A stretch of 64,000 nucleotides of DNA, taken from positions 23,102-87,101 of the IMG/VR virus record IMGVR_UViG_3300007735_000791, one strand, 5' to 3'. Position numbers and translations under genes: made by a program. The notes beneath the pieces are model-generated. The model had not been told where the DNA came from, ran no database searches, and worked only from the letters and a program-made list of their open reading frames with translations. The number at the start of each line of letters is the position of its first letter. Position 1 is the first letter of the stretch. Positions 30,241-63,252 of the stretch are shown here, in pieces. Origin of the DNA: a virus.

Positions 30241-30609
30241 ATGCCTAAACCTAATGGACCACAGTTTCAACCAATCATATTAAAAAATCAGTTTGGTAGA
30301 GAGCGTACTTTTAAAGCGCTATACCATGGCACTGTTAATCCTATTCCAGAAAACGAAAACATTATTCCAGCATCTCACCGCCATCCTGAAGGCATAGGGC
30401 GTAAAACCGCCGTTGCTACGCCATCATTATCAGTAGCAAAAAGGTTTGCAGGACATCCCGAAGGTTATGTATATAGAGTTGAACCTTTGGATAGAGATGA
30501 TATGAACTCAACTTGGTATCAACCAATTCGCTATTGGCGAAAAGGGGCTATTGAAGTTCCATCAAATAAAGGTTTTCGGATTATTGAGCAAATTCATCCT
30601 AAATCTTGA
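30241..30609 (+). CDS. Arr-like ADP-ribosyltransferase-fold protein
   Basis: LYHGT, ATPSLSVAKRFA, GYVYRVEP, S.KGFRII. Confidence 0.65.
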   Translation: MPKPNGPQFQPIILKNQFGRERTFKALYHGTVNPIPENENIIPASHRHPEGIGRKTAVATPSLSVAKRFAGHPEGYVYRVEPLDRDDMNSTWYQPIRYWRKGAIEVPSNKGFRIIEQIHPKS

Positions 30610-30676
30610 AATACTATAACGTATTATTCATAACAAACATGGGACTGTTAAAATAGTATAAAATATACTAAACACT

Positions 30677-30970
30677 ATGGCTAATGACGATACTTCTAAA
30701 GACAGCAGAAGGAGACCTCAACGACCTCGTGTCGGTGGAGTATACGAATGGAATCCAACTGGACTAGATGCTTTTGATTCTAAAATTAAACGTGAAAAAG
30801 GGTCATTAGTTCGTGTAGCAAAAGGCAGTAAAGCAGGCGTAAAGGGAAGGTTGCCTCATCCTTTTACATATTTAGAAGACCCTAATACTGGAGAGTTTCT
30901 GGGCATGGCTTTAGACGACAGCCTACAATTACGTAAATATATGCAAACAGAGGAAACTCCAACAGAATAA
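30677..30970 (+). CDS. Hypothetical protein (DTSKDSRRRP N-tag)
   Basis: Leaderless TATACT -10 upstream. Confidence 0.6.
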   Translation: MANDDTSKDSRRRPQRPRVGGVYEWNPTGLDAFDSKIKREKGSLVRVAKGSKAGVKGRLPHPFTYLEDPNTGEFLGMALDDSLQLRKYMQTEETPTE

Positions 30971-31003
30971 CGTATACTGACAGCGTAACGTTTGGAGCAC
31001 AAT

Positions 31004-31486
31004 ATGTCAGAACCCATGAATCGTTTGTTAGTTTGTTGGCGCCTTGTTAATGGTAGAAAAACAGATGGGGTCATGTACAAAATGACACCATACGATGGTC
31101 CTCCAGAATACGACATGGAACTTTTGGATATCTTGGAACGCCATAAGGCTCGTCATCAAGACTACGAAAATTGGCGTGCTTTAATTTTTAGAACAGACAA
31201 AGACACGGCAAGCAAACTTGACGCTGAGACAGCCATCAAGAATGAGTTGAAGGCTCACGATATCTTTATCAAAGATTTTCGTGATGAATTGAAAGTTGAT
31301 GCTTTAAAGTGCTTTAACAAACACAACAGACCAAGCAAAGGCTGTCCTGATTGGTGTGATGAGTCTAAGACAATAGGAAGAAAAGTTGGTGTCCCTGTTG
31401 ATAAACGACAGTATCTTTGTATGTATTGCCCAGCAGCCGAATACCCAACATACAAAGAACGGTTAAAACTGGGACTATACAAATAA
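31004..31486 (+). CDS. Cys-containing hypothetical protein
   Basis: C...HNRP..GC.DW and YLCMYCP motifs. Confidence 0.6.
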   Translation: MSEPMNRLLVCWRLVNGRKTDGVMYKMTPYDGPPEYDMELLDILERHKARHQDYENWRALIFRTDKDTASKLDAETAIKNELKAHDIFIKDFRDELKVDALKCFNKHNRPSKGCPDWCDESKTIGRKVGVPVDKRQYLCMYCPAAEYPTYKERLKLGLYK

Positions 31487-31963
31487 ATGATTATTGTAAC
31501 GTTTGACGTTATTGCAAACAGGGCTAAAGAAGTCGGCTCAAGTCAACCAAACAACTATGGTAGAAGACTGTGGTCAATGCTTTTTGGGACTTACAATGGT
31601 CGTATTTGTTTGATTGTTGACGGTGTAGAAACCCATCAACATCAGTTGATTATAGAGTGGTTAAAAAAAGAAAATTACAAACCAGGTTCTATTGATTTTC
31701 ATTGGGAAAGCGGTCCTGACAATCGCCTTGAAAGGGTTCGCGCTTTGCACGCCGTACACAGCAAGATTGATTGGTATGTAGATACTGACCCCACTACCGT
31801 ATCCAAAGTAATTGCAGAAGGTATTCCAACACTGTTAGTCACTGTTCCATTTATTGTTCGTCCTGAATGGGAAGAACAACGTACTATAGTAGGATGGAAC
31901 GAATTAACGGATAAGATTGAAGCACAAGCACTTAAAAAAGCAGAAAGGACATGGAAAGAATAA
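31487..31963 (+). CDS. HAD-like fold hypothetical protein
   Basis: N-terminal strand IIVTFD; WYVDTDP...GIPTLL. Confidence 0.45.
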   Translation: MIIVTFDVIANRAKEVGSSQPNNYGRRLWSMLFGTYNGRICLIVDGVETHQHQLIIEWLKKENYKPGSIDFHWESGPDNRLERVRALHAVHSKIDWYVDTDPTTVSKVIAEGIPTLLVTVPFIVRPEWEEQRTIVGWNELTDKIEAQALKKAERTWKE

Positions 31964-32232
31964 TGACAACTACACTGCGAGATGAGATATCAAACGGTTT
32001 TGAAGGAATGGGTGAAACCGTTCTATTGATGGACGGGTTTGAAGAAGCCTTTATTGGATACTGCCAACGCATCAACGAACCAGTATTGGCTGTTTACTCT
32101 TGGGAAAAAATGGTAGAAGTTTGCATGACACGAGATGGTATGACAGACATAGAAGCAATGGAGTACATTGATTACAATTGTCTTGGCGCGTGGGTTGGAG
32201 AACAAACTCCAATTATTGTGATGCCATTGTGA
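31963..32232 (+). CDS. Conserved phage hypothetical protein
   Basis: DGFEEAFIG...AVY...EAMEYIDYN.LGAWVGE.TP. Confidence 0.65.
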   Translation: MTTTLRDEISNGFEGMGETVLLMDGFEEAFIGYCQRINEPVLAVYSWEKMVEVCMTRDGMTDIEAMEYIDYNCLGAWVGEQTPIIVMPL

Positions 32233-33662
32233 AAATATACTTTGGTGGAGCAGAGAAAGGCATGTATGCCTCAATGTTGCTGTCTGCCAACGTGTCACGA
32301 TTGGGTATTAACTTAACCCATTTTGCTATTCCTAAAAAGAAGGTTTTAAACCTTTCAGAAAAGTTTAACGGTTCTGAATTGTTAATATATACATCTGAAA
32401 ATGACGAAGATTTAAATCGTTACGATTCATTTTTAAGAACCTACGCTGATGACCTAACAACAGTGATTGGCAGACCAGATTACGATGGAACATGGCTAAA
32501 CGAAAAATACGTGCCCATTTGGAATGATGGAGACGATTTAGAACGTCTTAATTGGATTTGTCAAAGACACGGACGAGTTGCTATTAGTGATAAGGCATTG
32601 GCTAAGCACCCACATAACAGGATTAACTCCATTGCTACTAGATGGAATACTGCAATGGTTGGAATTACTTCCAAACCAGAACATATTGAAAACATTAGTT
32701 GGGATTCTGTATTAGTGAACTCATGGACAAGTGCAATACGTTATGGAGAAACACAAGTCTGGACTGGTCATAGTTTACGTCGTTACCCTGCACAGCAAAA
32801 AGAAAGTGCTCGCAAACGACATAGAAATGATATTGAACGTTTGAATGTTTCCTATGAACAAGTAATGGCTGACGAAGTAGATGCTGTTGGAGCACTTGCC
32901 ATACGTTCTTGGAAGAGTTATGAAGAACGTGTTTTTGGGGGCTATGACCCCTCTACAACGTCTCAAAGTACAGGTGACGACGAAGTTGAAAATGGTGACA
33001 TAATTATTGCCTCACACCAAACACGTACCCCCCAAAATGTGGAAAACGTAGGTACAGGTATTGTTATCCCACCTCCAGAAAAGCGGCACGAAAGCGAACG
33101 CATATTATTACCTGTGATGGGGGTAGAAACAATAACCACCATGGGGTCTCAAACCATTGATTCTAATGGAGAATCTATAGAAATTGCCCCAGAACAAACG
33201 AATGTAATTAGGTATTCTGGAGCACTTTTAAGACAGTGCGATAATTGTTATCTCGCTTCAAAATGTCCTGCATTTAAGGAACATACAGAATGTGCTTTCA
33301 AGTTGCCTATTGAAATTCGTACCAAAGACCAACTTCAGTCCGCACTGAGAGCCATGATTGAAATGCAAGTTAGTCGTGTTATGTTTGCCCGATTTGCCGA
33401 AGAGTTGGAAGGGCAAGGATTAGATAGTAACCTTTCATCTGAAATGGATAGAGCATTTGAAATGGTTGAAAAGTTTAAAGAGATAAACGATACTCGTGAC
33501 ATGCTTAGGTTTCAAGTTGAGGCTCGTGGGTCAAGCGGTGTATTATCTAGATTGTTTGGGCAACGAGCAGCAGAGACTGCAAACCCACTATCATATGGAG
33601 GGTTGGGACCAGCAGAAACAGACGCATTCTACGATAACGTTTTAGATATAGAGGAGAGTTAG
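32229..33662 (+). CDS. Degenerate TGT/DpdA-like barrel fused to a Cys4 domain
   Basis: KIYFGGAE start, YVPIW, SW.SAIRYGETQVW; C-terminal CDNC....C.......C. Confidence 0.45.
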   Translation: MKIYFGGAEKGMYASMLLSANVSRLGINLTHFAIPKKKVLNLSEKFNGSELLIYTSENDEDLNRYDSFLRTYADDLTTVIGRPDYDGTWLNEKYVPIWNDGDDLERLNWICQRHGRVAISDKALAKHPHNRINSIATRWNTAMVGITSKPEHIENISWDSVLVNSWTSAIRYGETQVWTGHSLRRYPAQQKESARKRHRNDIERLNVSYEQVMADEVDAVGALAIRSWKSYEERVFGGYDPSTTSQSTGDDEVENGDIIIASHQTRTPQNVENVGTGIVIPPPEKRHESERILLPVMGVETITTMGSQTIDSNGESIEIAPEQTNVIRYSGALLRQCDNCYLASKCPAFKEHTECAFKLPIEIRTKDQLQSALRAMIEMQVSRVMFARFAEELEGQGLDSNLSSEMDRAFEMVEKFKEINDTRDMLRFQVEARGSSGVLSRLFGQRAAETANPLSYGGLGPAETDAFYDNVLDIEES

Positions 33663-35063: not shown

Positions 35064-35066
35064 CTC

Positions 35067-35465: not shown

Positions 35466-35556
35466 TCTTTGCTATGCTTTAAGGTGAAGCCGTAACCAAA
35501 GATGCTCGTCATCCGAACGTTACGGCTTCAGTTTTATCCGCCGACAAAAGGAGAGT

Positions 35557-36105: not shown

Positions 36106-36147
36106 CATTGTAGTCAAGTTAACAAAACGACCACATAGGAGAATAAA

Positions 36148-50953: not shown

Positions 50954-51661
50954 ATGTCTGATTTATTTACTAATTTTCAACAAATTTTAAGAGACGTTAA
51001 AAACAAATACGACATAAACATGTCCCACCCAAACGGGTCAATTATTTATGAAAAACCGTATCCAGCCATAAACAAGTCTGTCTGGATGGAAATCAATCAT
51101 ACAAAAACCCCTTCAACTACTTCTTTTAATTTTCAGTTTGATATTCCGCTTGAAAATGGGCATCGTGTGTCTGTTTTAAAAAATAATAGGATTCCTGGGC
51201 CTGTTCAATCAGTCATACATGTACCTACTAAATACATGGTTAGACAACCAAATGGTACAAATACAACAAGTTATGTTCACAGGTCAATGAGAGGTGGCGT
51301 TGACCTTGATTACATCAATGTTCCTAAACACCTTGAAGAATATACAGAAAACATTAAGCCTTATCACGAACTTAAAAATAACGACATGTTTCACGATTAT
51401 GTTAAATCTGTGTCTCGTCTTCCAAGATTTGGCACAGCCCAACAACACGTTAGGGATAAAAATCCAACTTTTGAAAGTCAACGAGCAATGACTGATGATG
51501 AATTAAATGAACATTTTCAAAACACTCATGGAAACTTAAGGCAAGAAGAATATCCGCATAACATACATTTATACGTTAATGACGTCAATTCAGACAGAAT
51601 TCTTCAGTACGATTACGACATTAAAACTGAAAAACTAACAACTGATGAAGAATGGGACTAG
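50954..51661 (+). CDS. Paralog family A protein 1
   Basis: HPNG..YPA.NK, F.IPLENGH and YDIKTE.L shared with the 53831 and 54615 ORFs. Confidence 0.7.
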   Translation: MSDLFTNFQQILRDVKNKYDINMSHPNGSIIYEKPYPAINKSVWMEINHTKTPSTTSFNFQFDIPLENGHRVSVLKNNRIPGPVQSVIHVPTKYMVRQPNGTNTTSYVHRSMRGGVDLDYINVPKHLEEYTENIKPYHELKNNDMFHDYVKSVSRLPRFGTAQQHVRDKNPTFESQRAMTDDELNEHFQNTHGNLRQEEYPHNIHLYVNDVNSDRILQYDYDIKTEKLTTDEEWD

Positions 51662-51686
51662 CACAGTAATAGTATATACTTAATAA

Positions 51687-52064
51687 ATGTCTCTAAATCC
51701 CGAACAATTTGGTGATGCCATGAAATATAGAGACACAGAATTAGTTCCAATCTCAATTTTAGACACAATGCAAGGCAATAAATTGCGTTATGACGTATCT
51801 GAACTGTCTGAAGACCTTAAAAAACGTGGATTTAACATTCCAGGCATCATTGATTACTACCAACACGACAGAAGAGCCGTTTTAGGTGAGGGAAATCACC
51901 GTTTGGAAGCCGCAAAACGGGCAGGATTTACCCATATGCCAGTAACTGTGTACCGTATTGAGGGTTCTGGGAAGAAAAGAGGCGTTCCTGTCAAAGGGTT
52001 TGAACCAGACAGGCATAATTACGTTCCAGGGAGGCTCCGTCCTTCAGATATTATGGATATATAA
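51687..52064 (+). CDS. ParB/Srx-like domain protein
   Basis: L.EDL.KRG...P...LGEGNHRL.AA..AG...MPV. Confidence 0.75.
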   Translation: MSLNPEQFGDAMKYRDTELVPISILDTMQGNKLRYDVSELSEDLKKRGFNIPGIIDYYQHDRRAVLGEGNHRLEAAKRAGFTHMPVTVYRIEGSGKKRGVPVKGFEPDRHNYVPGRLRPSDIMDI

Positions 52065-52555
52065 TGGCCCGTTCAAAGCGTGAAAAGATAATTGTCTATC
52101 ACGGAACGTGGAGTAGTGCTCCTCCGCATGAAAAGATTATGCCAAAGTCGGTATTTCATGCTGGAACGTTAAACGCAGCACATACCCGAATTGGTGACAC
52201 CATGCCTAGATACAGGAATAACCCAACTGGTGAGACTATACACGTTTATGAAATACAGCCACATGCTCCTATGGGCATGATGACATACACTGACCCTGAT
52301 AGAAATAAAGTATCTGCTAAGTATTTTGATGATTCTGTTTATAAAACTGCTGATAACTACGCATCTGACCAATTAGATGTGTCTAAAGGAGACAACACAA
52401 AGCGTATTAGAAAATACGTAAACTTAATTGAAGACCCAGGAAATATGTCTTATGTAATTCCCAAACATTTTGTAGAGTCTGGTTATGTTCGTTATTTGGG
52501 ACCACAGTTTGTAGATTGGAAACAAGTTACCCATAGTGCGGTTAAAGATGCTTAA
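52064..52555 (+). CDS. ART-PolyVal-like ADP-ribosyltransferase
   Basis: VYHGT, FHAGT..AA..R, Y.N..EDPG..SYVI. Confidence 0.65.
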   Translation: MARSKREKIIVYHGTWSSAPPHEKIMPKSVFHAGTLNAAHTRIGDTMPRYRNNPTGETIHVYEIQPHAPMGMMTYTDPDRNKVSAKYFDDSVYKTADNYASDQLDVSKGDNTKRIRKYVNLIEDPGNMSYVIPKHFVESGYVRYLGPQFVDWKQVTHSAVKDA

Positions 52556-52594
52556 TTTTTTAAAATCTTTTTCGTCGTTGAGCCGTGCACAATA

Positions 52595-53098
52595 ATGCCT
52601 GCACACGAACACCTCAACAAAATATTGTTTCATGCTTCTACAAGCATTAAACCACCACATAAAAAAAGTAAAAAAAGCCCAAACACTTTTCACGTTGGAA
52701 CCATTGGTTCTGCTATTGACCGAGTAAGTCTTAATTCTTTTACTGACGACGCATTATCAGAGTACGACGATGAGAGCATTCCACAAGTAGATGGTTTTAT
52801 GCATGTGTACGACGTTCAAGTGCCTAAAAATATGCACACTTATGACGACCCACATGCTTCGGGATACGACGAATACTCCCAAGATGATTGGGACTCAGAA
52901 AACGCTATAGATGAATCATCGGTAAAAGATATTGCGGCATATTTAAACCGTCACGAAGACCCAGGTTCTACTTCTTACATAATAAATAAAAACATGTTAA
53001 AAAATAAAAAAATAAAATATGTTGGAACTATGCCTTTTACAGCCCGTGCAGAAGCGGGAGATGAAAAACGTATTATGAAAGAACTTGGATATGAGTGA
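52595..53098 (+). CDS. ART-PolyVal-like ADP-ribosyltransferase (paralog)
   Basis: LFHAS, FHVGT..SA..R, YLN..EDPGSTSYII. Confidence 0.65.
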   Translation: MPAHEHLNKILFHASTSIKPPHKKSKKSPNTFHVGTIGSAIDRVSLNSFTDDALSEYDDESIPQVDGFMHVYDVQVPKNMHTYDDPHASGYDEYSQDDWDSENAIDESSVKDIAAYLNRHEDPGSTSYIINKNMLKNKKIKYVGTMPFTARAEAGDEKRIMKELGYE

Positions 53099-53615
53099 AT
53101 ATCTTAGCAATGAAGGTTTAGAAACATTTGACGAACGCAGTAGGTTTGAAGAAGGTCTTAGGACGGGTAAACCAAGAAAAGAACAGTTGTGGAATGAAGA
53201 ACATTCAAGAATGGTTTATGTTAAATCATTGGGACATATTAATCCACAACAATTTAAAGAACAGTTTGAACCTATAAATACCTATTGGGAAAACGTAGAA
53301 AAAGATACGTTCCTTCACAAAAATGTTGATTACAAAATGAATGACCTAGTTGAATCTGTCAAACAACGTGGAATAGTACGTCCCGTTATTGTTGGTAATC
53401 CAATTAAATTTCCAGGAAGTAGTAATGTACACAAACCAGAGGTATTAGATGGCCTTCATAGGGTTATTGCTGCTTCTAGGGCTGGGATAGACATCCCAGT
53501 AAATGTTTTAGATGAGCGCCATCAACAACCTATGCGTGGTGCTACTTACAACTTGTCCACAGAACACGAATATAACCCTGCTTTTGCAAAATCACCAAGC
53601 CGAAGAAAACGTTAA
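53091..53615 (+). CDS. ParB/Srx-like domain protein
   Basis: LVESVKQRGI.RPVIV...LDGLHRV.AA..AG..IPV. Confidence 0.75.
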   Translation: MSEYLSNEGLETFDERSRFEEGLRTGKPRKEQLWNEEHSRMVYVKSLGHINPQQFKEQFEPINTYWENVEKDTFLHKNVDYKMNDLVESVKQRGIVRPVIVGNPIKFPGSSNVHKPEVLDGLHRVIAASRAGIDIPVNVLDERHQQPMRGATYNLSTEHEYNPAFAKSPSRRKR

Positions 53616-53827
53616 TGGCTAAATACGAACAATTACAACTATTTGAATGGCCTAAAGACAAAGACGCCAATCAAAGGTTGGGTAGATACAATAAAGATGG
53701 TTTTGCATCTCCAAAACACCGATTGTTGTTTGCTAGAGCACAATGGGAAAAACACTTCCTTCAATGGGCAGATGAGTACGAAAAATCGCGTGAATTACGG
53801 TTATTTAACAAAGACGACTATAATTAA
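53615..53827 (+). CDS. Hypothetical protein
   Basis: TAATG coupling; EQLQLF start. Confidence 0.5.
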   Translation: MAKYEQLQLFEWPKDKDANQRLGRYNKDGFASPKHRLLFARAQWEKHFLQWADEYEKSRELRLFNKDDYN

Positions 53828-53830
53828 TAA

Positions 53831-54610
53831 ATGAGTGAACCATTTCAACGTCTTCAAGACCATTTTCGTCATTTAAATGAAAAACATGGCGTTGATTTAA
53901 CCGTTCCACACGGGGTAAGAATTGACGGAAAGATTTATCCAGCAACAAATAAACTTATTACCATAGGTCATAAACATAACAAGGGTACTGAGGTTGAATC
54001 TCGTTTTTATATTCCTCTTGAAAATGGTTTAAAAGTTCATACAGCAACTTATTTAGGAAACGGAGACGTGTACATGCAAATGCATGTACCTGAAATTGCC
54101 ATACATAATGATGGTAGTAAAAGATATGGGTATGGAATTGCTGTTCATCAACATGAAGATTCTTACCGTGCAAGTTTTGGTAAAAATCCAAACAATTTTG
54201 ACGAATATTACAAACAACGTCCTAATCCTTATTTTGAAGAACGAATGTCTTTACACGACACCAGAGGTCCACTTTCTACTGTTCATGAAGTTTTAAGTAT
54301 GTGGGGAAAAGAACCTTATCAAGGAACATACGATTTTGTAGATAAAGAAGGTTACCAACACTTTAAAAACCTTAGACCTAACGTTGACTTTGATGAAGAA
54401 CCTTACCGACCTCATCTTGAACTAACTGAAAATGAATTAAACGAACATCGTCAAAACGTTAAATTTCACCCATCAGAGGCTCCGCATAACGTGACAGTTT
54501 ACGGTGTTGATACAGACCGCGCTTTTTACAACTATAATACTAAAACAGAACAATTACGTCCATGGCACGATGTTTTTGGATTTGGAAGTATTCTCAACAA
54601 AGAGGAATAG
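53831..54610 (+). CDS. Paralog family A protein 2
   Basis: PHGV.I.GKIYPA.NK, IPLENG, YNTKTEQL. Confidence 0.7.
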   Translation: MSEPFQRLQDHFRHLNEKHGVDLTVPHGVRIDGKIYPATNKLITIGHKHNKGTEVESRFYIPLENGLKVHTATYLGNGDVYMQMHVPEIAIHNDGSKRYGYGIAVHQHEDSYRASFGKNPNNFDEYYKQRPNPYFEERMSLHDTRGPLSTVHEVLSMWGKEPYQGTYDFVDKEGYQHFKNLRPNVDFDEEPYRPHLELTENELNEHRQNVKFHPSEAPHNVTVYGVDTDRAFYNYNTKTEQLRPWHDVFGFGSILNKEE

Positions 54611-54614
54611 TTAA

Positions 54615-55343
54615 ATGCCTAGAAACGAACCATCTAATTTTGAACGTCTTCACGGGCACATGCGTAACGTTAAACAAGAGTTGGGCATTGACATGCTTCA
54701 TCCACACGGTGTTTCAATCCACGGCAAAATGTATCCTGCCCATAATAAACACATAGCATTTTCAAAAATAAATTCTCCTGACACTGGTAATGCAGGTTTT
54801 AATATTCCACTTGAAAACGGGCACAGATTGTATGCGTGGGTAAGTGGTTTGCATCATCCTGAAGGGGTATTAAAAGCAAACTTTGAAGTAACCTATCCAC
54901 ATAAATGGACAGACCTAGACCCTACACCTAAAAGCGAAGGACGTACAGAAGGCTATTCTTACTACCCAAAGATGACCAACCCTTTTAGAAATACCCCAGA
55001 CGATGAAGAAGTGTTTGAAACAGATAATTTAAATCCAAAAAGTCCTGAAGAGTTTTTAGATTTTATGAAGCAAGTAAGTTCTAAACCTACAACAGGCTAT
55101 AAACGAAGTTGGAAACTTTCTACAAATTCTGAATTAATGCGTAACAATCCAGATGAAATGATGGACGAAGATGATTTTGCTGAATTTCACAAATACAAAC
55201 ATGTGGGTGAGGGTCTTGGAAGTAAAGACGCTGACCCATCACACATTATAAGAACAACTGTTTTTTCTACACCTATGATTAACAACGAAGAACACACTTA
55301 CGACATCAAAACAGAACAATTGAGAAAGGTAGAAGATTATTAA
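54615..55343 (+). CDS. Paralog family A protein 3
   Basis: HPHGV.I.GKMYPA.NK, IPLENGH, YDIKTEQL. Confidence 0.7.
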   Translation: MPRNEPSNFERLHGHMRNVKQELGIDMLHPHGVSIHGKMYPAHNKHIAFSKINSPDTGNAGFNIPLENGHRLYAWVSGLHHPEGVLKANFEVTYPHKWTDLDPTPKSEGRTEGYSYYPKMTNPFRNTPDDEEVFETDNLNPKSPEEFLDFMKQVSSKPTTGYKRSWKLSTNSELMRNNPDEMMDEDDFAEFHKYKHVGEGLGSKDADPSHIIRTTVFSTPMINNEEHTYDIKTEQLRKVEDY

Positions 55344-55360
55344 ACAATGAGTAAGGATAA

Positions 55361-55606
55361 ATGAAAGTTTGGATTGACCAAGATTTATGCACGGGAGATG
55401 GGTTATGCGCCGAGATAGCACCAGATGTATTCATAATGCTGGAGGATGGATTGGCGTACGTGCAGGAGAATGGGAAAATATATTCCAAACTGCGAGGCAA
55501 CCCAGAAGGCGCAAGCGGTTTAGCCTCTTTCGCAGAAGACCGCCTTGGTGATGTAATAGAAGCCGCAGAAGACTGCCCTGGCGAATGTATTTTCATAGAA
55601 CCATAA
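55361..55606 (+). CDS. fdx: Single-cluster ferredoxin
   Basis: MKVWIDQDLCTGDGLCAEIAPDVF...AAEDCPGECI (C-x2-D-x2-C...CP). Confidence 0.92.
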   Translation: MKVWIDQDLCTGDGLCAEIAPDVFIMLEDGLAYVQENGKIYSKLRGNPEGASGLASFAEDRLGDVIEAAEDCPGECIFIEP

Positions 55607-55623
55607 AGATGTATAATTAGACT

Positions 55624-55899
55624 ATGGCTAAAGGAAAACCTGAAGAGAACAACCCTAAACGAAGGCCCAAAAGACCACGACCACCAGGATTGTCTGTTCC
55701 ATTAAATTCTTCAATTAGAAAAAAAGAAAAAGAAATGCGTGGCGGAGTGGACATATCAAAAATTAAATCCAGTGTTACTGAAGAAGATATGGATAGCCAT
55801 CCGTACCTGACCGACGAACAAGTACTTAATCCTCTTCTAGATGAAGAAGGCGAATGGGTAATTGATGAAGAAGCCACAGAAACTATTAGAAATTACTAA
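55624..55899 (+). CDS. Hypothetical protein with GKPEENNPKRRP N-tag
   Basis: Leaderless TATAAT -10. Confidence 0.6.
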   Translation: MAKGKPEENNPKRRPKRPRPPGLSVPLNSSIRKKEKEMRGGVDISKIKSSVTEEDMDSHPYLTDEQVLNPLLDEEGEWVIDEEATETIRNY

Positions 55900-56261
55900 T
55901 GGCTATTTATCGTAAGGGAGAAAATCAGTTTGAATTGCACCAAAGTGCGCGTCTTGGGCAAAACAAACGAGAAATGAACAGAAAAGCGGCAACGGAAGCC
56001 TTTGGCAATATGCAAGAAAACCCAATGGCAGCAATTCAATCAACAGATTTTTTGGCAGAAGACGTTTCTCGTCAAATATCTTATGAAGCAGGATTAGAAG
56101 ATACAACAGTTGAATCGCACAAAACACAAAACAGATTTATGAACGCAGTAGCAGAATCCGCTGGTTTAAAAACAGACATGTCCATTCCAATCTCTGGTGA
56201 TGACTTGGCTAGAGGAGCCGCAGGTAAAAAAGCGTTAGAGGCTTTAAAAGACCTTAAGTAA
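55899..56261 (+). CDS. Hypothetical protein
   Basis: TAATG coupling. Confidence 0.6.
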   Translation: MAIYRKGENQFELHQSARLGQNKREMNRKAATEAFGNMQENPMAAIQSTDFLAEDVSRQISYEAGLEDTTVESHKTQNRFMNAVAESAGLKTDMSIPISGDDLARGAAGKKALEALKDLK

Positions 56262-56264
56262 TTA

Positions 56265-56726
56265 TCAATCTTCTTCCATTTGACTGGTCCACTGAAACAT
56301 GTTGATGTGGTGATTAATCTTTTCCGCATCTTTAGCCATCGCTTGTGTTACTGGATGGTCTTTTCCTAAATTATAGTGAACTACTTGGTGCATGCTATTA
56401 AGGTTATTTCTAACTATTTCTAAGTGGTCTCTTGTTTCAGCATGCTTTCCATTACCGCCCCTATTACGAACATAACTCTCGTTTGCTAAAAAATCATGCA
56501 TATCTAAAGCGTTTACGTATTTATCTAAATAATGGGTAGTAATAGGCCACGAACGGTGTGGGTTTTGGTTACCATTATGGTGTAATCTAATTTTCATATA
56601 GTGTAAATCGTGGCTAATTGCAATTATAGGACCAAGCCTATCAAACAGTTCTTTACGCTCTTGTTCTTGACCCTCATAGTCATGGGGATGTAAGTTTTCG
56701 TAGTCTTCGCCACTGTTATCGCTCAT
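56265..56726 (-). CDS. His-rich hypothetical protein (isolated minus-strand gene)
   Basis: Only long ORF in the interval; TG-A-GATAAT-N7-ATG leaderless-type start. Confidence 0.6.
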   Translation of the reverse strand: MSDNSGEDYENLHPHDYEGQEQERKELFDRLGPIIAISHDLHYMKIRLHHNGNQNPHRSWPITTHYLDKYVNALDMHDFLANESYVRNRGGNGKHAETRDHLEIVRNNLNSMHQVVHYNLGKDHPVTQAMAKDAEKINHHINMFQWTSQMEED

Positions 56727-56762
56727 ATTATCCATTATCTCATATTGTTGTATCCTTGTAGT

Positions 56763-57404
56763 ATGTCTGCTTCTAACCATGTAAACAAATACTTATTTGG
56801 TGAATTGTTTGAGCAAATGCATGGAATAACCATAGATGACGCCTTGTCGGGCAATAAAGTTAAAATGGTTGGAATACACAACGAACGAGACCCAGGTTCT
56901 CAATGGTTTACACCAGAAGAACACGATGAGGTAATGGGAAAACCCTGGTCAGAAATACACTCAAAACTTACCGCGCCTACTGACCCAGAAGCAACAGTTC
57001 GTAAATATCAACTAGTTAACCCAGTTCAACATTTTATTGCAGGTGGAAGTCTTTATGAAAACGCCGCGCAATTACGAGACCTGACTCCTTTTTTACGCAA
57101 TGCTTCTCGTGCCAATGAAGTTCCTTTGTATCGCGGCGCTAATCGCCCTCCAGCAGTTGATTCTGGTAGAGATAGACCTCTTGGGTTTACTCCAGACAGG
57201 TATGCTGCTGTTAGTTATACAAAAGACAGGTGGGATGGTCGTGGTCGTGGACAAATCTTTAAAGCAAGCGCTGGAACAGTTAAAGGTGTGCCTTTGCGAG
57301 AAGTAGGCGGTAATCAAATGTATGTCAATAAAAAAACAAAAAGAAGAGACTACGAATGGTTAGTGTTACCAGAGACTATCCCTCAAGAATGGCCTGATAA
57401 ATAA
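56763..57404 (+). CDS. Putative R-S-E-type ADP-ribosyltransferase
   Basis: LYRG, GFTPDR..AVSY, QIFK, DYEWLV. Confidence 0.55.
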   Translation: MSASNHVNKYLFGELFEQMHGITIDDALSGNKVKMVGIHNERDPGSQWFTPEEHDEVMGKPWSEIHSKLTAPTDPEATVRKYQLVNPVQHFIAGGSLYENAAQLRDLTPFLRNASRANEVPLYRGANRPPAVDSGRDRPLGFTPDRYAAVSYTKDRWDGRGRGQIFKASAGTVKGVPLREVGGNQMYVNKKTKRRDYEWLVLPETIPQEWPDK

Positions 57405-57817
57405 TGGCTGCTCATGAACATTTAAATGAAGAACTTTTTCATGGGTCATCAGACAGGTTTGGTATCCTTAAAAAAGGACAAATAATAATTCCTGGAAATA
57501 GTGTTCGCGGATTAATCAATCAACATCATCAAGATTCTGAATACCCAGAAGCCTTAGACTATGCACACGCAACATTTAGCCGAGAACGTGCAGAAATATA
57601 TGCTGATTGGGCAGCAAACGGTTATTTAAATGAAGTAGGGAAGCCAGTGGGACATGAAAATATTGAAAAACATGGAATCGCTAAACCAATTGTTTATTCA
57701 GTAAAACCTGCAGCGGACCAAGAAGATGACCCGCAAGATTGGCAGTCTGTTCGTTCTAAACAGGGATTTGAAGTAATTGGTCGCCGTCGTATGAGAAAGT
57801 TAAAGTTTTTAAAATAA
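57404..57817 (+). CDS. Arr-like ADP-ribosyltransferase-fold protein
   Basis: LFHGS, LKKG.II.PG, AHAT...A..YA, VYSVKP, VRSK.GFEVI. Confidence 0.7.
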   Translation: MAAHEHLNEELFHGSSDRFGILKKGQIIIPGNSVRGLINQHHQDSEYPEALDYAHATFSRERAEIYADWAANGYLNEVGKPVGHENIEKHGIAKPIVYSVKPAADQEDDPQDWQSVRSKQGFEVIGRRRMRKLKFLK

Positions 57818-58191
57818 TGGCTGCTCACGAACATTTAAATAAAAATCAACTACGCATGTTTATGCGACCACATGAAATATATAACCTTGTTGTTGACTCC
57901 ATTGACAGAGCAGATGGAGAAACTTTAGAAGATACATGGGTAAACAAAAAGTCTGAATTATCTCACGGGTACCGCTCTTTAGCAGACAGCGTTTTAAAAG
58001 AAGGAGTTAAACGCCCTATAACAATAATGTTAAATCATGGTCATTACAAAGATTTTACAATGGGCCAAGGTCACCATCGTGTAAAATCAGCCGAAGTTGC
58101 AGAATTTAAAACAGGAAAAGAATACTATGTACCAATTGTATATGATTGGGATTGGGACGAAACAGATAACAAACGATATGACCCTATGTGA
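57817..58191 (+). CDS. ParB/Srx-like domain protein
   Basis: LADSV.KEGV.RPI...GQGHHRV.SA...VPI.Y. Confidence 0.7.
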   Translation: MAAHEHLNKNQLRMFMRPHEIYNLVVDSIDRADGETLEDTWVNKKSELSHGYRSLADSVLKEGVKRPITIMLNHGHYKDFTMGQGHHRVKSAEVAEFKTGKEYYVPIVYDWDWDETDNKRYDPM

Positions 58192-58203
58192 GATAATGGA
58201 CCT

Positions 58204-58359
58204 ATGGCAGATTTAAACGCAGAACAATTCCTTGTAGAAAGCCCAACTGCTGCCGCAAAATATGCAGAAAACGCTTTAATTACAATGAATGTAAAAATAC
58301 CAAAAGTAGACCATAAAGACAAATACATTGACTATTTGTTTGATGAATGGAACGATTGA
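58204..58359 (+). CDS. 51-aa protein with LNAEQF N-tag (not in the ORF track)
   Basis: MADLNAEQFLVESP...; stop overlaps the next ATG. Confidence 0.55.
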   Translation: MADLNAEQFLVESPTAAAKYAENALITMNVKIPKVDHKDKYIDYLFDEWND

Positions 58360-58859
58360 TGAATTTATTTGTTAAAAGTCATGTAGAAGAAGACCCACTA
58401 GACGAACACTTTGAAGGTGACACTAAGCATATATTTAACAAATATATATCTCATATAAATGATGTACAGCAAGAATTGGTTGCTAGAAACCCACGAGGTT
58501 GGCAAGACGAATTTGAAAGTAGATTAGAACATTTTGCTACCGAGGCTGGTAGGCGACACGGGACGCATGTACGGGTAACACAAGAAGATGATAAACATAT
58601 TATTAATGTTTATTCTCCACGTGCTGCAAGAAGTATGGGATTAATGGACATGCGACAACGAACACCAAAAGAAGAACAATTAAAAAAATTACAAGAACAA
58701 CAATTTCGCGACCAACTTGATGAGGTTGCATTTAACCGTTTGGCACGTTCCAGTAAAAGAATGTACGACGCAGCCATACACCATGACCTTTTAAGTGAAG
58801 GAAGTTTTACGCTTGACCCAGATGCTGAAGACCCAAAGGACATTTACAGGCCCTCTTAA
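58359..58859 (+). CDS. Hypothetical protein
   Basis: TGATG coupling. Confidence 0.6.
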   Translation: MNLFVKSHVEEDPLDEHFEGDTKHIFNKYISHINDVQQELVARNPRGWQDEFESRLEHFATEAGRRHGTHVRVTQEDDKHIINVYSPRAARSMGLMDMRQRTPKEEQLKKLQEQQFRDQLDEVAFNRLARSSKRMYDAAIHHDLLSEGSFTLDPDAEDPKDIYRPS

Positions 58860-59473
58860 TGTCACACCACATTACGAGTATTCCTCGTCCAATGTATGCG
58901 TATGTTAAAAATGAATTTTTATATGACATGCAAGAAGGTTATGGAGAAGTAACCCCAGCATTGTTATACGGTATATCAGCGTTGCCAAATAGGGCATGGG
59001 GTATATCAGCACTATTATCAAATGGCGCACTTGTTCAACATTTGCCCGTTCATGCTTTTCTTAAAGACGGTAAAAGTGACCATAATCACCAGTTAGGTGA
59101 ACTACAAGTTTGGTCATGTTACGGGCAAGACTTTGGCGTTGAAGAATACAGCGCCTTATCTGAACTATCTGTCCGCGCTTACCTAAAAGGTTCGTGGGAA
59201 AAAGGACATTATTGGTTTACCGCCGCGCCATATGATGATGTGTACTCGCGCACGCCAGACCAACACAAACATTTTAATTTTGTTTGGTTAGAGTGCGGAC
59301 ATTTGGCAACTCTTCCTGGTAACAGGTTACTTGTACACGACCCTTCTTTCACTGTTGACATGCCTGAGTGGGGTAACAGACCAAAGTACAAAGTCAATAC
59401 TCAATATTGGTATCCAGAAGATTTTGACCAAAAACCGCAGTTTGACTTGACAATAGACGATACTACTGCATAA
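58859..59473 (+). CDS. Conserved phage hypothetical protein
   Basis: YV..EFLYD..G.G, GA....LP.HA, W.C, P.QHK, G....PGNR. Confidence 0.7.
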   Translation: MSHHITSIPRPMYAYVKNEFLYDMQEGYGEVTPALLYGISALPNRAWGISALLSNGALVQHLPVHAFLKDGKSDHNHQLGELQVWSCYGQDFGVEEYSALSELSVRAYLKGSWEKGHYWFTAAPYDDVYSRTPDQHKHFNFVWLECGHLATLPGNRLLVHDPSFTVDMPEWGNRPKYKVNTQYWYPEDFDQKPQFDLTIDDTTA

Positions 59474-59488
59474 TGTATACTTGATTGT

Positions 59489-59908
59489 ATGCCGAAGAAC
59501 GAAGACGCCTCTGAATTTGAACTGCAAAACGAGGCTAACACTGGAACAATGCGAGGAATTGGCAGTGGTGGAGTTGTAGACGAATCCAGCCGAGTTAGGC
59601 AAGACGCAACAAACTTCCATCGTGGCATGTTTGCGCTAATGGCTTCTTACGATTGGGATAGAGGTCAGTTTAGTGAACACCCACAAGATGTTGATTTGAG
59701 GAATGAGGCTTTTGAACTGCTTAATTTGCCACCTCACCTGTCTCCTCAATTCAACAAAGCCAAAGCAGATGAATTGTTGCAAAGTTTGGGAAACATTAGA
59801 AACAAAGACGAAAGCGGACAGATACCAGACGAAACAAGGTCTGGTGATTACGTACGTAATTTGATTAAATTGTCACAAGCCCGTTTTGGTAATAGACAAA
59901 TTAAATAA
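59489..59908 (+). CDS. Hypothetical protein (internal HLSPQF)
   Basis: Leaderless TATACT -10. Confidence 0.55.
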   Translation: MPKNEDASEFELQNEANTGTMRGIGSGGVVDESSRVRQDATNFHRGMFALMASYDWDRGQFSEHPQDVDLRNEAFELLNLPPHLSPQFNKAKADELLQSLGNIRNKDESGQIPDETRSGDYVRNLIKLSQARFGNRQIK

Positions 59909-60767
59909 AACTAGCAAGTGCAAGTTTAATACCTTGTTCAATAGTTATTTTTGGTTTGTAAAATTCAAACATTTTTGATGGGTCACAAACGCGATACTGA
60001 ACTCCTTCTGGAGCACCAATAATTCTTTCAAATTTAGGTTTATATCCAGCAATTTTTGAAACCATTTCTGCTAATTCATTAAACGAAACTGCAATCCCCG
60101 TTCCAAGGTTTACTGGTCCTTTAATATCTTGCTTGACCGCCTCAAGTGTTGCTGCAACAACATCGCTTATGTGAATAAAATCTCTTGTTTGGTTTCCAGT
60201 GCCCCATATTTTAAATGGGTCTTCCTGCCTAGCACCACGTGCAATAAATGAAGGAAATGGATAATCAAGTGCTTGGTCTTCTCCATAGCCAGAAAATGGA
60301 CGAAATACATGAACCCTCAATCCTTCATTTTCTGCATATTTGGCAAGCATCTCTCCAGTAAGTTTTGCCCAACCATATGTAAGGTCTGGGGATTGAATAT
60401 CATCTAGGTCAATGTCGCTTTCTTTTAATTTATGTGTTGAACCATAACTTTGTAACTTAATTGGATAAGCAGCAGATGATGAATAATAAATAATCCTCTC
60501 TGGCTTAGTCCTTATCGCCCATTGAAATAATTCAGAATCAATAGCAAGGTCTACGGCAACAGATAAAGGCGCACCTTCTATGGTCGCCCTTCCTCCAACT
60601 ATCGCTGCTAAATGAACTACTAAGTCAAAGTGTGTTTCATCTGTTGCAAAAAACTTACGGGCATCTATTCCGTTTTTTATATCTATACCCGTGATGTCAT
60701 GGCCATCAAGTGCTTTGCGAAAATATCCACCTACGAAACCTGCGTCACCAGTGATGAGAATTTTCAT
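59901..60767 (-). CDS. NAD-dependent nucleotide-sugar epimerase/dehydratase
   Basis: ILITGDAGFVG, HLAA, SSSAAY, YGWAK, RPFSGYG, RDFIHI.D. Confidence 0.92.
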   Translation of the reverse strand: MKILITGDAGFVGGYFRKALDGHDITGIDIKNGIDARKFFATDETHFDLVVHLAAIVGGRATIEGAPLSVAVDLAIDSELFQWAIRTKPERIIYYSSSAAYPIKLQSYGSTHKLKESDIDLDDIQSPDLTYGWAKLTGEMLAKYAENEGLRVHVFRPFSGYGEDQALDYPFPSFIARGARQEDPFKIWGTGNQTRDFIHISDVVAATLEAVKQDIKGPVNLGTGIAVSFNELAEMVSKIAGYKPKFERIIGAPEGVQYRVCDPSKMFEFYKPKITIEQGIKLALASFI

Positions 60768-61324
60768 TTACATCCCCACATTCCATATATGTATGGTTCG
60801 CTAAATACTGTCGTATCAAGCATAATAAAAATATCTGGGCTCCATCCAGCATTCTTTAAAAGAGCCTCAACGTCTTGTCTACCCCAAGCCCAGTAATGCT
60901 CCTCGTTTGTATCATGCCAGGCATCAATTGGAGTTGTGAGAACTAGTGTTTTAGATTTTTGTCTTATCAAATTCAAGACTGAACTTGGGTTCTCAACGTG
61001 TTCAATACTTTCTGAACAAATATACAAATCTACATTTTCAATATTTTTTAAATTGACTTCTAGCGGTCCAGAGTATTCATAACCCTGTGCATAATCACCC
61101 AGTGTTGTCTTTTCAATATTTAGCGCTTTAGCGATTACGCCATTACCACAACTCAAGTCCGCAACCGATTTTGCTTTTACCTGATAAGCCATATCTTGAG
61201 CAAGATGTATTGTCATATTCACACGAATGCCATGTCCGCGTCCATACATCGCATGGTCATGTGGCTGGGGATAAATTTTTACTAGTTCTTCAGGTGTATA
61301 AAATTCTCGCAGTTTTTTTATCAC
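60764..61324 (-). CDS. SAM-dependent methyltransferase-like protein
   Basis: VADLSCGNG motif I, CSESIEHV..P, LVLTTP. Confidence 0.75.
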   Translation of the reverse strand: MIKKLREFYTPEELVKIYPQPHDHAMYGRGHGIRVNMTIHLAQDMAYQVKAKSVADLSCGNGVIAKALNIEKTTLGDYAQGYEYSGPLEVNLKNIENVDLYICSESIEHVENPSSVLNLIRQKSKTLVLTTPIDAWHDTNEEHYWAWGRQDVEALLKNAGWSPDIFIMLDTTVFSEPYIYGMWGCK

Positions 61325-62031
61325 CTGTGTACCTTCATATCGTGTCCACGGGTTTCAATAGCCCCAACTGATATTGGGAAATGTTGAGCCTGACAATCCT
61401 CTCGCACGTAAGTTGGAATTTTTAAATAGTGCAAAGCATCATGATGGAAACATGGGTCATCAGACATGTTTTTATCCATATCCCATCTCCACCGAATACC
61501 AGAAAACACCTCACGAGCAATAAAAATTGCGGCAGCAGAAGCCATTGCGTTCATTACAGGAAATGAATACTTGTCAACTCTTGGTCCACGCAATCCGTAA
61601 GTGGTGATATATGGAGCACATAAAGGATGATTCATTTCTAACATTTTAGGCAAAATGTCGTTTGGTGGCATTGTGTCTGCAGCCAAAAACAACATGTGCG
61701 TACATGACGGTATTGACATTGCATAATCATTTACAAGATTTTGACCAACAGTAATGTGGCGAATTCTGTTTTTGGTGGTTACTTCTGTACGACCATCGTC
61801 AAGCGAGTACGTCCAAAACTCTCCTCCAATTTCTTCAAGCCTTTTAAGAAATGGACCAAACGGCTCTAAACCACGAGAGTCAATTTGAATTGCAGCAAAG
61901 TATTTTACATCAGTCCAATTTCCAAAATGCTGGTATTCTTCTTTTACTTTTTCTGCATTTCTCATCCATGAACCCCAATGGTCTATATTGTCCATAACAT
62001 AAGCATGCAATGTTGTTCCAACTACTATCAT
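61321..62031 (-). CDS. GT-A (GT2-like) glycosyltransferase
   Basis: THMLFLAAD...P, SDDPCF..DA..L, co-located with the epimerase. Confidence 0.55.
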   Translation of the reverse strand: MIVVGTTLHAYVMDNIDHWGSWMRNAEKVKEEYQHFGNWTDVKYFAAIQIDSRGLEPFGPFLKRLEEIGGEFWTYSLDDGRTEVTTKNRIRHITVGQNLVNDYAMSIPSCTHMLFLAADTMPPNDILPKMLEMNHPLCAPYITTYGLRGPRVDKYSFPVMNAMASAAAIFIAREVFSGIRWRWDMDKNMSDDPCFHHDALHYLKIPTYVREDCQAQHFPISVGAIETRGHDMKVHR

Positions 62032-62073
62032 AAGTTCTCCTGTTTCTGTACTAATGGTGTAAACTTAAGTATA

Positions 62074-62232
62074 ATGGTTGTCAAGTTCCCTATTTACACC
62101 CAATCTATGGCAGATGCTATTTCTATGGCAAAAGCGCAAGCCGCTGCACAAGGGTACAAGAACGTTTATCTTGTAAAAGTTGACAAAGTAGGAAATGGTG
62201 CTTGGGAAATAACTATGAGGTTGAGCGCATAA
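62074..62232 (+). CDS. Small hypothetical protein
   Basis: TAAACT -10 upstream; TAATG coupling to the next ORF. Confidence 0.5.
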   Translation: MVVKFPIYTQSMADAISMAKAQAAAQGYKNVYLVKVDKVGNGAWEITMRLSA

Positions 62233-62393
62233 TGAACATTAATGTTGAAAAACCAGAACTTTGCTGCTCTATTAAAGTTCCAGACACATCTACACAATGT
62301 ATTCGTTGCGGTTCTGAAATGACCCCAGAACATGCCCATTATCGTTGCTACAACTGTGGTGAACGGGATTCTTGTTGCGAAGGCGTTTATTAA
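62232..62393 (+). CDS. Small zinc-finger protein
   Basis: C.RCG...PEHAHYRC..CG.RDSCC.G. Confidence 0.65.
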   Translation: MNINVEKPELCCSIKVPDTSTQCIRCGSEMTPEHAHYRCYNCGERDSCCEGVY

Positions 62394-62761
62394 TGGTTTC
62401 AGCAAACAGCCTTAACTGGGAACAACATATTATGAGAGAAGGTCATGTTAGGTCTTTAAAAACTGATAAAGACAGAAAAGATGTACTGATACGTGCTATA
62501 GGTAGCGGGCATCCAATGATTGCAGAACAACGAAGAAACGGTCATATTGTAGTGCATGTTAAAGATGACGGGTCAATAACTACGGCAAGTAGTGGTGGAG
62601 GTGGACGTGGTGTTGAAAATTTTGAATCTCAATTACGTCGTGCTCACAAATCTGTTGGTTCTGATTTTCCAAGAAAAAATGAAAGTGATAAACAGTTTCA
62701 AAGACGTATGACTAAAACCCAAAAACCAAATGAAGAAACTCCTGAATCTGGAATTGCATAA
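62393..62761 (+). CDS. HicA-like fold protein with LNWEQ N-tag
   Basis: EQRRNGHIVV....G.IT.ASS....R..ENF.SQLRR. Confidence 0.45.
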   Translation: MVSANSLNWEQHIMREGHVRSLKTDKDRKDVLIRAIGSGHPMIAEQRRNGHIVVHVKDDGSITTASSGGGGRGVENFESQLRRAHKSVGSDFPRKNESDKQFQRRMTKTQKPNEETPESGIA

Positions 62762-63252
62762 TGGGACGTAACGAACATTTTGATGCTGGGCATAACAACG
62801 AACGCATCGCTAACGAACGAATTAAACGCGCCGCAGCGCAAGAAAAAGGAGAAGCGATTGCTGAAAGTTTATTAAATTCTTTTGCTGAGTTGTCAGGTTT
62901 TCACGACGCTGAACATATGTTTTTAACAGAACGAAATATAAAAGAAGAAGCATTTGCACAAAAATACAAAGAAGGTCCTGGAAAATTAGCCATTGACCCA
63001 GAAATGGGGGAGGGTTTTCATTACCGAGTATCGCACCCATCTGGTTATTACGGTATTCACCGAGGCGCCAACATGGATATATTTCATCCTAAACACGGTG
63101 CAGTTGATTTAATATCCTATGTTGACTATGAAAAACATGGGATATTTAGCCCAATGCAACCTGAAGAATGGCCTTCTCCACAACAGGTACATCAAGATTT
63201 ACATGAATGGGTAATAGAAAACGGGGAACAATATGACAAACATTACGCATGA
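62761..63252 (+). CDS. Hypothetical protein (MGRNE N-tag)
   Basis: TAATG coupling. Confidence 0.6.
   Translation: MGRNEHFDAGHNNERIANERIKRAAAQEKGEAIAESLLNSFAELSGFHDAEHMFLTERNIKEEAFAQKYKEGPGKLAIDPEMGEGFHYRVSHPSGYYGIHRGANMDIFHPKHGAVDLISYVDYEKHGIFSPMQPEEWPSPQQVHQDLHEWVIENGEQYDKHYA

Follow-up and report, generated by a model that had tools for sequence, protein, structure and literature searches.

In bacteriophage T4, diverse proteins have only a targeting sequence in common (PMC3012670). Polyvalent proteins carry catalytic domains, among which ADP-ribosyltransferase (ART), RimI-like GNAT and ParB/Srx, and are predicted to be packaged and delivered with the DNA (Iyer et al. 2017, PMC5512222); the same source places them typically near late genes, and describes DdrB of P1, which includes a ParB domain, and Alt of T4 as packaged in the head (PMC5512222). 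In encapsulins, a short peptide found on diverse cargo enzymes is read by the inside of an HK97-fold shell (PMC8346489). The L27 extension cleaved by Prp has the motif MLxx(D/N)LQ(F/L)F'A(S/H)KK (PMC9405229), and an extension of this type is common to L27 and to the coat and scaffold proteins of phage 80alpha (PMC5744158, PMC9405229). Here we describe a short peptide, called hereafter the tag, encoded in a 64,000-nucleotide stretch of viral DNA (the window), which is the right-hand 64 kb of the single 87,101-bp virus record IMGVR_UViG_3300007735_000791. With the consensus M-A-A-H-E-H-L-N-x-x-Q-F, and a core [HY]-h-[NSG]-x(1-2)-Q-F (h = hydrophobic), the tag looks like an address or docking label, carried once per protein by unrelated small enzymes of uncultivated freshwater phages. 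Sequence comparisons support the notion of a shared functional tag, the destination of which may be the capsid or another partner.

Like the capsid targeting sequence (CTS) of the T4 internal proteins IPI-III, the tag is a peptide of about ten residues starting otherwise unrelated, fast-evolving small proteins. A score matrix identified 54 tag-initial open reading frames (ORFs) among the 801 ORFs of at least 40 aa found in the genome and 19 further loci. The 54 ORFs form 12 groups not joined by BLAST beyond the tag, and include three confirmed folds. Some of the 19 loci represent the same phage retrieved from two collections. Family counts omit L002, L004 and L018, which duplicate the L001 contig, as well as L011, L015, L021 and L026-L028, which are unrelated, and depend on gene calls made by a simple ORF caller of our own. 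Pfam and PHROGs searches yielded almost nothing on the tagged proteins, and Pfam alone had no match to the product of gene 57404 (genes are named by their first position in the window). The profile of the 57404 family matches rifampin ADP-ribosyltransferase (2HW2/9IAF, E 3.3e-4), which supports the Arr label of the initial annotation and the prediction of an Arr-type ADP-ribosyltransferase. The ParB label holds as well, since the 57817, 53091 and 51687 families match the ParB chain 6T1F (E 8.7e-5). Further matches, to other ParB, Noc, KorB and sulfiredoxin chains, center around the D-G-H-H-R (G-x-x-R) box and the preceding helix; 51687 has in addition a ParB-like PHROG match (8e-7), and the Pfam ParB_N match of 53085 is under its cut-off. 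The third tagged family is GNAT, with 25 PDB chains at E <= 1, mostly acetyltransferases, RimI being the best (E 0.0019). At the level of sequence profiles, Arr, ParB and GNAT are confirmed as three unrelated tagged folds. Two other labels fared worse. Gene 56763, proposed as an ART, exhibits LYRG, SFT and ExEW motifs by eye and has no PDB match; the description of 62393 as HicA-like found no support in Pfam or PHROG searches.

A profile of the tag (A3; 14 residues, 35 rows), built from other loci only, has four matches over the whole 87-kb genome (E 1.2e-7 to 1.1e-5), all at ORF starts (57404, 57817, 52595 and 56763). The internal copy HINPQQF comes next, and the remaining six copies (51687, 58204, 30241, 62393, YLGPQF and HLSPQF) were not reported by A3 at E <= 10. 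On four related records the profile has 3-5 matches each at E <= 10, and 3-4 of them score below 1e-4. In a relative found through the 57404 protein (36% identity), clustered genes start with MAAHESINDKQF, MAKEHLYGEQLQMF, MALNPDQF, MAAHEHLNPDQL and MAAQEHLSGQLSMF, so that the two motif variants initially distinguished, HL(N/S)xxxF and LNxEQF, merge into the one consensus given above. Enrichment over shuffled controls is found both in the window genome and in the complete relative G001. In the former, the pattern [HYW][LIVM][NSGH]x1-2Q[FL] has four matches in 26,893 residues, all at 52-60 kb, against 0.70 in shuffles, and one shuffle out of 300 reaches four; for the strict pattern, 0.2-0.7 occurrences are expected over a whole proteome. 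QF dipeptides number 14 in the 3,187 aa of the region and 32 in the 23,706 aa elsewhere (Fisher p 6e-4), the frequencies of Q and F being equal in the two sets. In G001 a loose pattern has 12 matches against 3.56 expected (0/200 shuffles), eight of which lie within 7% of the genome; each of the eight genes of the G001 island carries one copy by eye, four being captured by the loose regular expression.

The tag is conserved at the peptide level, as the initial annotation had argued. Over the eight codons compared, the 52595 and 57404 copies show five synonymous differences and a single A/P replacement. Over 41 distinct instances, Ala3 is encoded by GCT (19), GCA (16), GCC (3) and GCG (3), His6 by CAT (22) and CAC (13), Asn8 by AAC (16) and AAT (16), and Leu7 by five Leu codons. 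Such instances were collected by peptide likeness, and six families defined by their bodies provide a less biased test. Tagged members with DNA sequence were compared in pairs having at most 60% body identity, untagged members being left out; in these pairs, which are not independent, tag residues 2-8 are identical in 264 of 420 cases (63%), against 2717 of 6899 (39%) for the bodies. The codon differs at identical residues in 142/264 cases in tags (54%), and in 1470/2602 in bodies (56%). Since synonymous divergence is equal and peptide identity higher, the tags must date back as far as the bodies, and it is selection on the peptide that maintains them. Synonymous-site likeness of tags is 47% both within and between loci, which argues against homogenisation by gene conversion. 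The data show purifying selection on the protein, codons being free to change; a nucleotide-level signal and recent gene conversion were both rejected on these grounds.

Cassette order varies among close relatives (95-98% identity over the DNA they have in common), with every breakpoint at a tag. In L010 the end of gene 56763 leads into the ParB body through one tag, and the Arr gene is missing, the deletion joining the 57404 and 57817 tag repeats. In L008 the 52595 cassette and an acetyltransferase cassette are inserted between 56763, Arr and ParB, and in L009 the 52595 cassette is joined directly to ParB. These comparisons show that, in the sequences available, tag-coding DNA is a breakpoint of cassette shuffling, and in this context the tag compares with the T4 CTS. 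Exact recombination at the tag might suggest a functionless hitch-hiker, in which the first eight codons are kept at recombination, or a nucleotide signal for translation start or recombination. No Shine-Dalgarno site precedes the tagged genes, whose starts overlap the stop codon of the gene before, and the adjacent 57404 and 57817 tags are nearly identical in DNA, with one difference in the first 24 nt. Yet, a hitch-hiker or signal of this type is already disfavoured, and appears very unlikely, because synonymous sites are as diverged as those of the bodies under a more conserved peptide, and tags are not homogenised within the genome. Moreover, inner and C-terminal copies occur exactly in untagged subfamilies, which no start-site or hitch-hiking model predicts. 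A distinct rearrangement is seen by comparing L010:950-1060 to window positions 56763-57404. Here 596 nt of gene 56763 have been lost, from 14 nt after the ATG to 31 nt before the stop codon, leaving a 12-codon remnant, and the breakpoint is not at the tag.

Whether the tag is merely the first strand of the ART and ParB folds had been raised as an objection at the outset. The Arr alignment pairs profile positions 11-104 to residues 17-101, includes the H-G-[ST] strand, and begins at the L-F-H-G strand, downstream of the tag. Untagged paralogues, known in three families, have the first hydrophobic element at their very start (with a check of the stop codons upstream): untagged acetyltransferases start with MPEYTFQY and MPKPIKYQY, the untagged 56763-type protein with MTTRRPYFFESAF, the 52064-type with M(ARSKREK)IIVYHGT. 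Two seemingly untagged ParB genes have in fact a GTG start, and the tag. As read from these alignments, residues 1-9 of the tag are an add-on, and the terminal Q/L-F merges with the first hydrophobic element of each domain. It is accordingly most improbable that the motif is a part of each fold, ART, ParB and GNAT, with a convergent or trivial likeness among first strands. This idea can draw on the alignment of Q/L-F with an aromatic residue kept in untagged paralogues (Y10 and F12 are invariant in A5, and A4 has an F/Y column), on the Q found at tag position 11 in 17 of 17 ParB-like sequences, and on the overlap of the C-proximal copy of small ParB proteins with the family-typical I-N-P-N stretch. 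However, nothing in untagged paralogues or in the alignment to the solved Arr structure corresponds to residues 1-9, these same nine residues are found ahead of three different folds, and N8 and F12 keep the same distance whatever the fold.

Proteins lacking the N-terminal tag may host the motif elsewhere. A C-proximal [RK/T]-[HY]-L-[GS]-x-Q-F is present in all five untagged members of the 52064-type family A7, and the three N-tagged paralogues have V-G-T-M-P-F in its place. Two untagged acetyltransferases carry H-I-S-T-Q-F and Y-I-S-E-Q-F in a helix, nothing similar being found in five tagged ones; a third one has E-K-L-S-Q-V-Q-F at residues 16-23. Small untagged ParB proteins end in H-M-N-P-x-Q-F, in 53091-type ParB proteins the motif follows a conserved extension of about 45 residues, and both members of the 59489 family have H-L-S-x-Q-F. 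Among 60 unique proteins from four families (proteins below 90 aa were dropped), 30 have the N-terminal tag and no inner motif, 15 an inner motif with its core beyond residue 20 and no N-terminal tag, 15 neither, and none has both. Most of the 15 proteins with neither have variant or GTG-start tags, and only two untagged 56763-type paralogues are clearly devoid of a copy. These counts show that, in the predicted proteins, the motif occurs once per protein at varying positions. The N-terminal form originally described holds; the N-terminal location is not required, and one copy may reside anywhere in the protein.

The tag is lineage-specific. A degenerate, peptide-level DNA pattern covering its first eight residues identified six stretches in viral contigs, all in low-GC phage contigs and with the tag at an ORF start. 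Of 18 stretches found in metagenomes, 15 are of the low-GC phage type, two lie within a bacterial protein, and one on a contig with 59% G+C. In 596 Gb of cellular genomes there are three unrelated stretches against about nine expected by chance, so the tag is at chance level there. Word-indexed protein searches retrieved only five and three relatives of 57404, and a 30-residue N-terminal profile of 13 families, compared to 1.84 billion representatives, had four matches, three of which are known family members. The literature text searched had no mention of the tag peptide strings, subscription journals and supplementary files being outside its scope. The fourth match of the 30-residue profile is P0006, a 954-aa Lys/Asn/Glu-rich protein encoded by a 3,997-bp metagenome contig, which features about 19 tandem repeats F-D-F-H-x-N-H-E-x-L-N-x-K-Q-F-H-P, the core of which equals that of the tag. 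P0006 has no Pfam family, no counterpart in viral contigs and one relative (P0028), and the likeness of its repeats to the tag may be a coincidence.

The copies found in the window are reported in Table 1. All of the 11 peptide strings initially listed translate as written; for the three internal ones, the positions given were those of the ORF starts, and the motifs themselves lie further downstream. Support from orthologues varies among copies. Orthologues of 56763 start with MAAHEHLNNYLF or MPAQEHLNNYLF, and those of 62393 read MGTEEHLNWDQH and MAGENNLNWEQH, the one in G001 being within an operon running into tail-fibre-like genes. The position of HINPQQF is conserved in full-length relatives from L016, L023 and L025, which have HVNPEQF, WLHPDQF and PLSAEQF. 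MADLNAEQF is conserved across three loci, including L009 and L022 (FAM28), and the L022 orthologue of 59489 has EHLSAQF at the matching place. For MSLNPEQF the only support is an analogue, MALNPDQF, on another family in L001. The weakest member, MPKPNGPQF, is without the hydrophobic-N part of the motif; its L025 orthologue reads MPKPNGQQF, and the unrelated family FAM32 starts with MPxPSGDQF. A loose match to the motif is also provided by the C-terminus of the window DNA polymerase (18311-20371), K-V-S-H-Q-F-A-K-S-W-A.

Table 1. Copies of the tag and the small-gene array, in window coordinates.
Feature	Position	Strand	Gene and remarks
Variant start MPKPNGPQF	30241..30267	+	Arr-like gene 30241-30609; weakest member
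Small-gene array	50954..59908	+	No Shine-Dalgarno sites; stop and start codons overlap (TAATG)
Half-tag MSLNPEQF	51687..51710	+	ParB-like gene 51687-52064; first gene behind TATACT-N6-ATG
C-proximal YLGPQF	52493..52510	+	ART-like gene 52064-52555, untagged; motif kept in family A7
N-terminal tag MPAHEHLNKILF	52595..52630	+	ART-like gene 52595-53098; profile E 2.0e-7
Internal HINPQQF	53235..53255	+	ParB-like gene 53091-53615, after 48-residue N-terminal extension; profile E 0.056
Degenerate tag MSASNHVNKYLF	56763..56798	+	Gene 56763-57404; profile E 1.1e-5
N-terminal tag MAAHEHLNEELF	57404..57439	+	Arr-like ADP-ribosyltransferase gene 57404-57817; profile E 1.2e-7
N-terminal tag MAAHEHLNKNQL	57817..57852	+	ParB/Srx-like gene 57817-58191; profile E 1.3e-7
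Half-tag MADLNAEQF	58204..58230	+	51-aa gene 58204-58359
Internal HLSPQF	59735..59752	+	Gene 59489-59908
Degenerate tag MVSANSLNWEQH	62393..62428	+	Gene 62393-62761, directly upstream of tail-fibre genes

The genome has about 40% G+C, nearly every gene on one strand, and a gene set including a terminase, an SPP1-type portal, a major head protein and a sheath-like gene. In genome coordinates, the portal is at 12331-14013, a probable scaffold at 14064-14858 and the coat protein at 14916-16010. Two WhiB genes reside in the window (35067, E 2.5e-13; 40514, E 1.5e-16). In the literature, the presence of WhiB serves to place freshwater phages with Actinobacteria, and phages of this type are on record as having ADP-ribosyltransferase genes (PMC6802176). 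No cultured relative was found among 50,697 phage records searched by DNA and by two proteins; sequencing runs from 10 studies, some of them on viral fractions, contain the stretch. Phages isolated on Nanopelagicales, the type of host considered here, are reported (PMC10202952). In the array hosting most tags, TATA[AC]T-N6-7-ATG starts are found at 50954, 51687, 53831, 55624 and 59489; the same box, 6-7 nt before the ATG and with no Shine-Dalgarno site, recurs at 30677, and a -35-like hexamer is additionally present at two of the array starts. A sigma-70 scan revealed no enrichment, with 27 sites observed against 36 expected from shuffles. The organization of the array suggests leaderless transcripts from host-type promoters, as common in Actinobacteria.

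Other gene families accompany the tag. FAM2 (235-259 aa) has three paralogues in the window (50954-51661, 53831-54610 and 54615-55343), is found along with tagged genes in seven sources (the window genome and six loci), and counts five copies in L005; it had no family, structure or Atlas match, the Atlas look-up on the 53831 protein giving no usable hit. A second common start, MA[KR]GKPEE[FN]NPKRRP, is found on small basic proteins (window 55624-55899 and 29364-29549), is kept in four loci, and may represent another tag class of the same phage. An opposite-strand trio (59901-62031, minus strand), including an NAD-dependent epimerase/dehydratase (E 2e-30), breaks the array where relatives have genes for HExxH proteins. 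The latter are two paralogues of 429-546 aa, found at L001:6743-9790 (minus strand) and also in L003, L013 and L024, between the tagged island and tail-fibre-like genes. They start with MPLGPQF, MPTLGSQF or MPNLGEQF, and share a conserved HE[LMW]GH and a downstream E-G-x-A-D. Searches of Pfam and PHROG with them found no match and Atlas gave a weak lead only; from the motif and this lead, they are classified as putative zincin-like proteins. An HslV/proteasome-family peptidase gene lies directly upstream of the portal gene, at genome positions 11357-11986, before the window (L029:11357-11983). Because no usual prohead protease was found, the peptidase may be the head maturation protease, though this is a guess.

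How can the tag be explained? The lineage would attach a portable short linear motif once to each small accessory enzyme, and one common partner would recognise all the tagged enzymes. The motif is probably a docking motif with some common reader, and we infer that the reader is a single one. The most likely partner would be the interior of the head during its assembly (scaffold, portal or coat), so that enzymes would be packed into virions and their delivery would accompany that of the DNA. One accessible peptide of 7-12 residues would in this way load ADP-ribosyltransferases, ParB-like enzymes, acetyltransferases and peptidases. The procapsid as reader is a guess made by analogy, and capsid loading is put forward as a tentative possibility. 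The initial annotation had imagined a disassembled polyvalent protein. This picture gains support, by analogy, because ART, RimI-like GNAT and ParB/Srx are all catalytic domains of polyvalent proteins; zincin-like HExxH proteins are found in relatives only. Polyvalent proteins join at least two domains in one polypeptide, whereas here genes are separate (51-219 aa, with their own stop and start codons), and a common peptide takes the place of the chain. The separate tagged pieces would do the work of a polyvalent protein, as a modular, recombination-ready replacement. Gene order in G001 points the same way, the tagged island being back to back with the operon running into tail-fibre-like genes, which opens with two HExxH proteins starting with MPLGPQF and MPTLGSQF. 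So does the fact that relatives have kept both the tag and the head module, the portal being 78% identical.

Compared to the T4 CTS, the tag has no apparent similarity to the T4 sequence, is not restricted to the N-terminus, given the inner and C-terminal copies of 15 of the 60 proteins, and is not accompanied by a protease for its removal, since no S78, U35 or T4 gp21-type protease was found in the eight head-region proteins scanned. The cargo would be made of enzymes (ART, ParB, GNAT) rather than small inhibitors. As in encapsulins, a short peptide is found on diverse enzymes and no protease would be needed, and the encapsulin cargo peptide can stand at either cargo end; differences are the DNA-filled phage head in place of a compartment, and the absence of any sequence likeness. 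Protease-free cargo loading for a DNA-filled head, in freshwater actinophages of 87-98 kb, is a reading to be held with some doubt.

Several points weigh against a capsid-loading tag. The motif patterns were selected and refined after the data had been seen, G001 being the independent replicate, and the Fisher p of the one-copy counts (6e-6) is overstated, as the 60 proteins correspond to about 4-5 independent placements. The lineage is uncultivated and known from sequence alone. The motif is absent from head, scaffold and portal proteins, apart from a lone loose-pattern MGESQF in the portal. Eight head-region proteins, including the terminase, endolysin, phosphoesterase, HslV-family peptidase, SPP1-type portal and coat protein, contain no canonical prohead protease or MuF domain, and no HExxH protein is found among the 138 ORFs called in the window genome. 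No conserved cleavage site or residue follows the tag, and cutting after F would damage the domain, because the tag abuts the first strand. The host-type -10 boxes directly before the ATG suggest early rather than late expression, and some inner copies lie in presumably folded parts, such as the GNAT helix, that a capsid receptor might not reach.

An alternative is a host partner. Through the motif, several modifying enzymes may be gathered at one target in takeover, a host hub of replication, transcription, translation, or chaperone/protease activity, with no role in the virion; we regard this possibility as rather doubtful. Position-independent motifs present once per protein are typical of hub-binding peptides, the operons resemble early genes read by the host polymerase, and a motif nearly invariant on enzyme bodies only 27-49% identical is what a conserved host reader would require. 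Yet, head genes are similarly conserved, so conservation does not discriminate between readers, no candidate host protein has been identified, and the absence of the exact tag from cellular genomes implies that it is not the copy of a host N-terminus. A further hint to a hub comes from the 57817-type ParB subfamily (A2), where Q-L-x-M-F directly follows the tag in 10 of 10 aligned sequences (window 57847-57861). We take it to resemble the sliding-clamp-binding peptide Q-L-[SD]-L-F. Clamp binding was rejected as a general reading, because the peptide is restricted to this subfamily, and in most tags Q-F is followed by polar residues. An N-terminal metal site was also considered, as A-A-H after Met removal would presumably fit the X-X-His pattern; variants with K, Q or S, together with the inner copies, speak against such a site.

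The reader may alternatively be a phage protein other than the capsid, such as a common inhibitor, chaperone or scaffold that would silence toxic enzymes or bring them together in one complex, or a protease that would activate or remove them at set times. Both complete relatives have kept the HslV-family peptidase next to the portal (67% identity), HExxH proteins carrying their own LGxQF adjoin the island in relatives, and multi-copy FAM2 always accompanies tagged genes. There is precedent in Prp, which cuts a short N-terminal motif of non-homologous phage proteins and L27 (PMC5744158, PMC9405229). A non-capsid phage reader is nonetheless unlikely: the enzymes would not survive cleavage at inner copies, FAM2 searches yielded no function, and the lack of HExxH proteins in the window phage led to their rejection as obligatory reader. 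The tag and the Prp motif are alike in being N-terminal peptides of 9-14 residues, with N, Q and F, on non-homologous phage proteins. In contrast, the tag has N-x-x-Q-F in place of N-L-Q-F-F, a spacing of three rather than two from N to Q, and no A-[SH]-K-K (38 unique tags). A search of the phage genome for Prp (PF04327) had no match at E <= 1, with a control that was positive in 6 of 14 genomes, and Prp-type cleavage was discarded on these grounds. The phyla listed as having a long L27 do not include Actinobacteria (PMC9405229).

As an address label, if it is one, the tag would account for the way in which small phages keep a variable set of host-modifying enzymes. An enzyme would become part of the set once it had gained a few residues, and cassettes would be swapped at the label. 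The tag would also represent a short natural signal for loading foreign proteins into phage heads, and the tag by itself would make effectors recognisable in the 'dark matter' of uncultivated phages. With a host protein as reader, the motif would point to a hub in abundant freshwater Actinobacteria that is the target of several phage enzymes. Either way, the one-copy rule and the selection at the protein level provide testable statements on proteins which have no family assignment.

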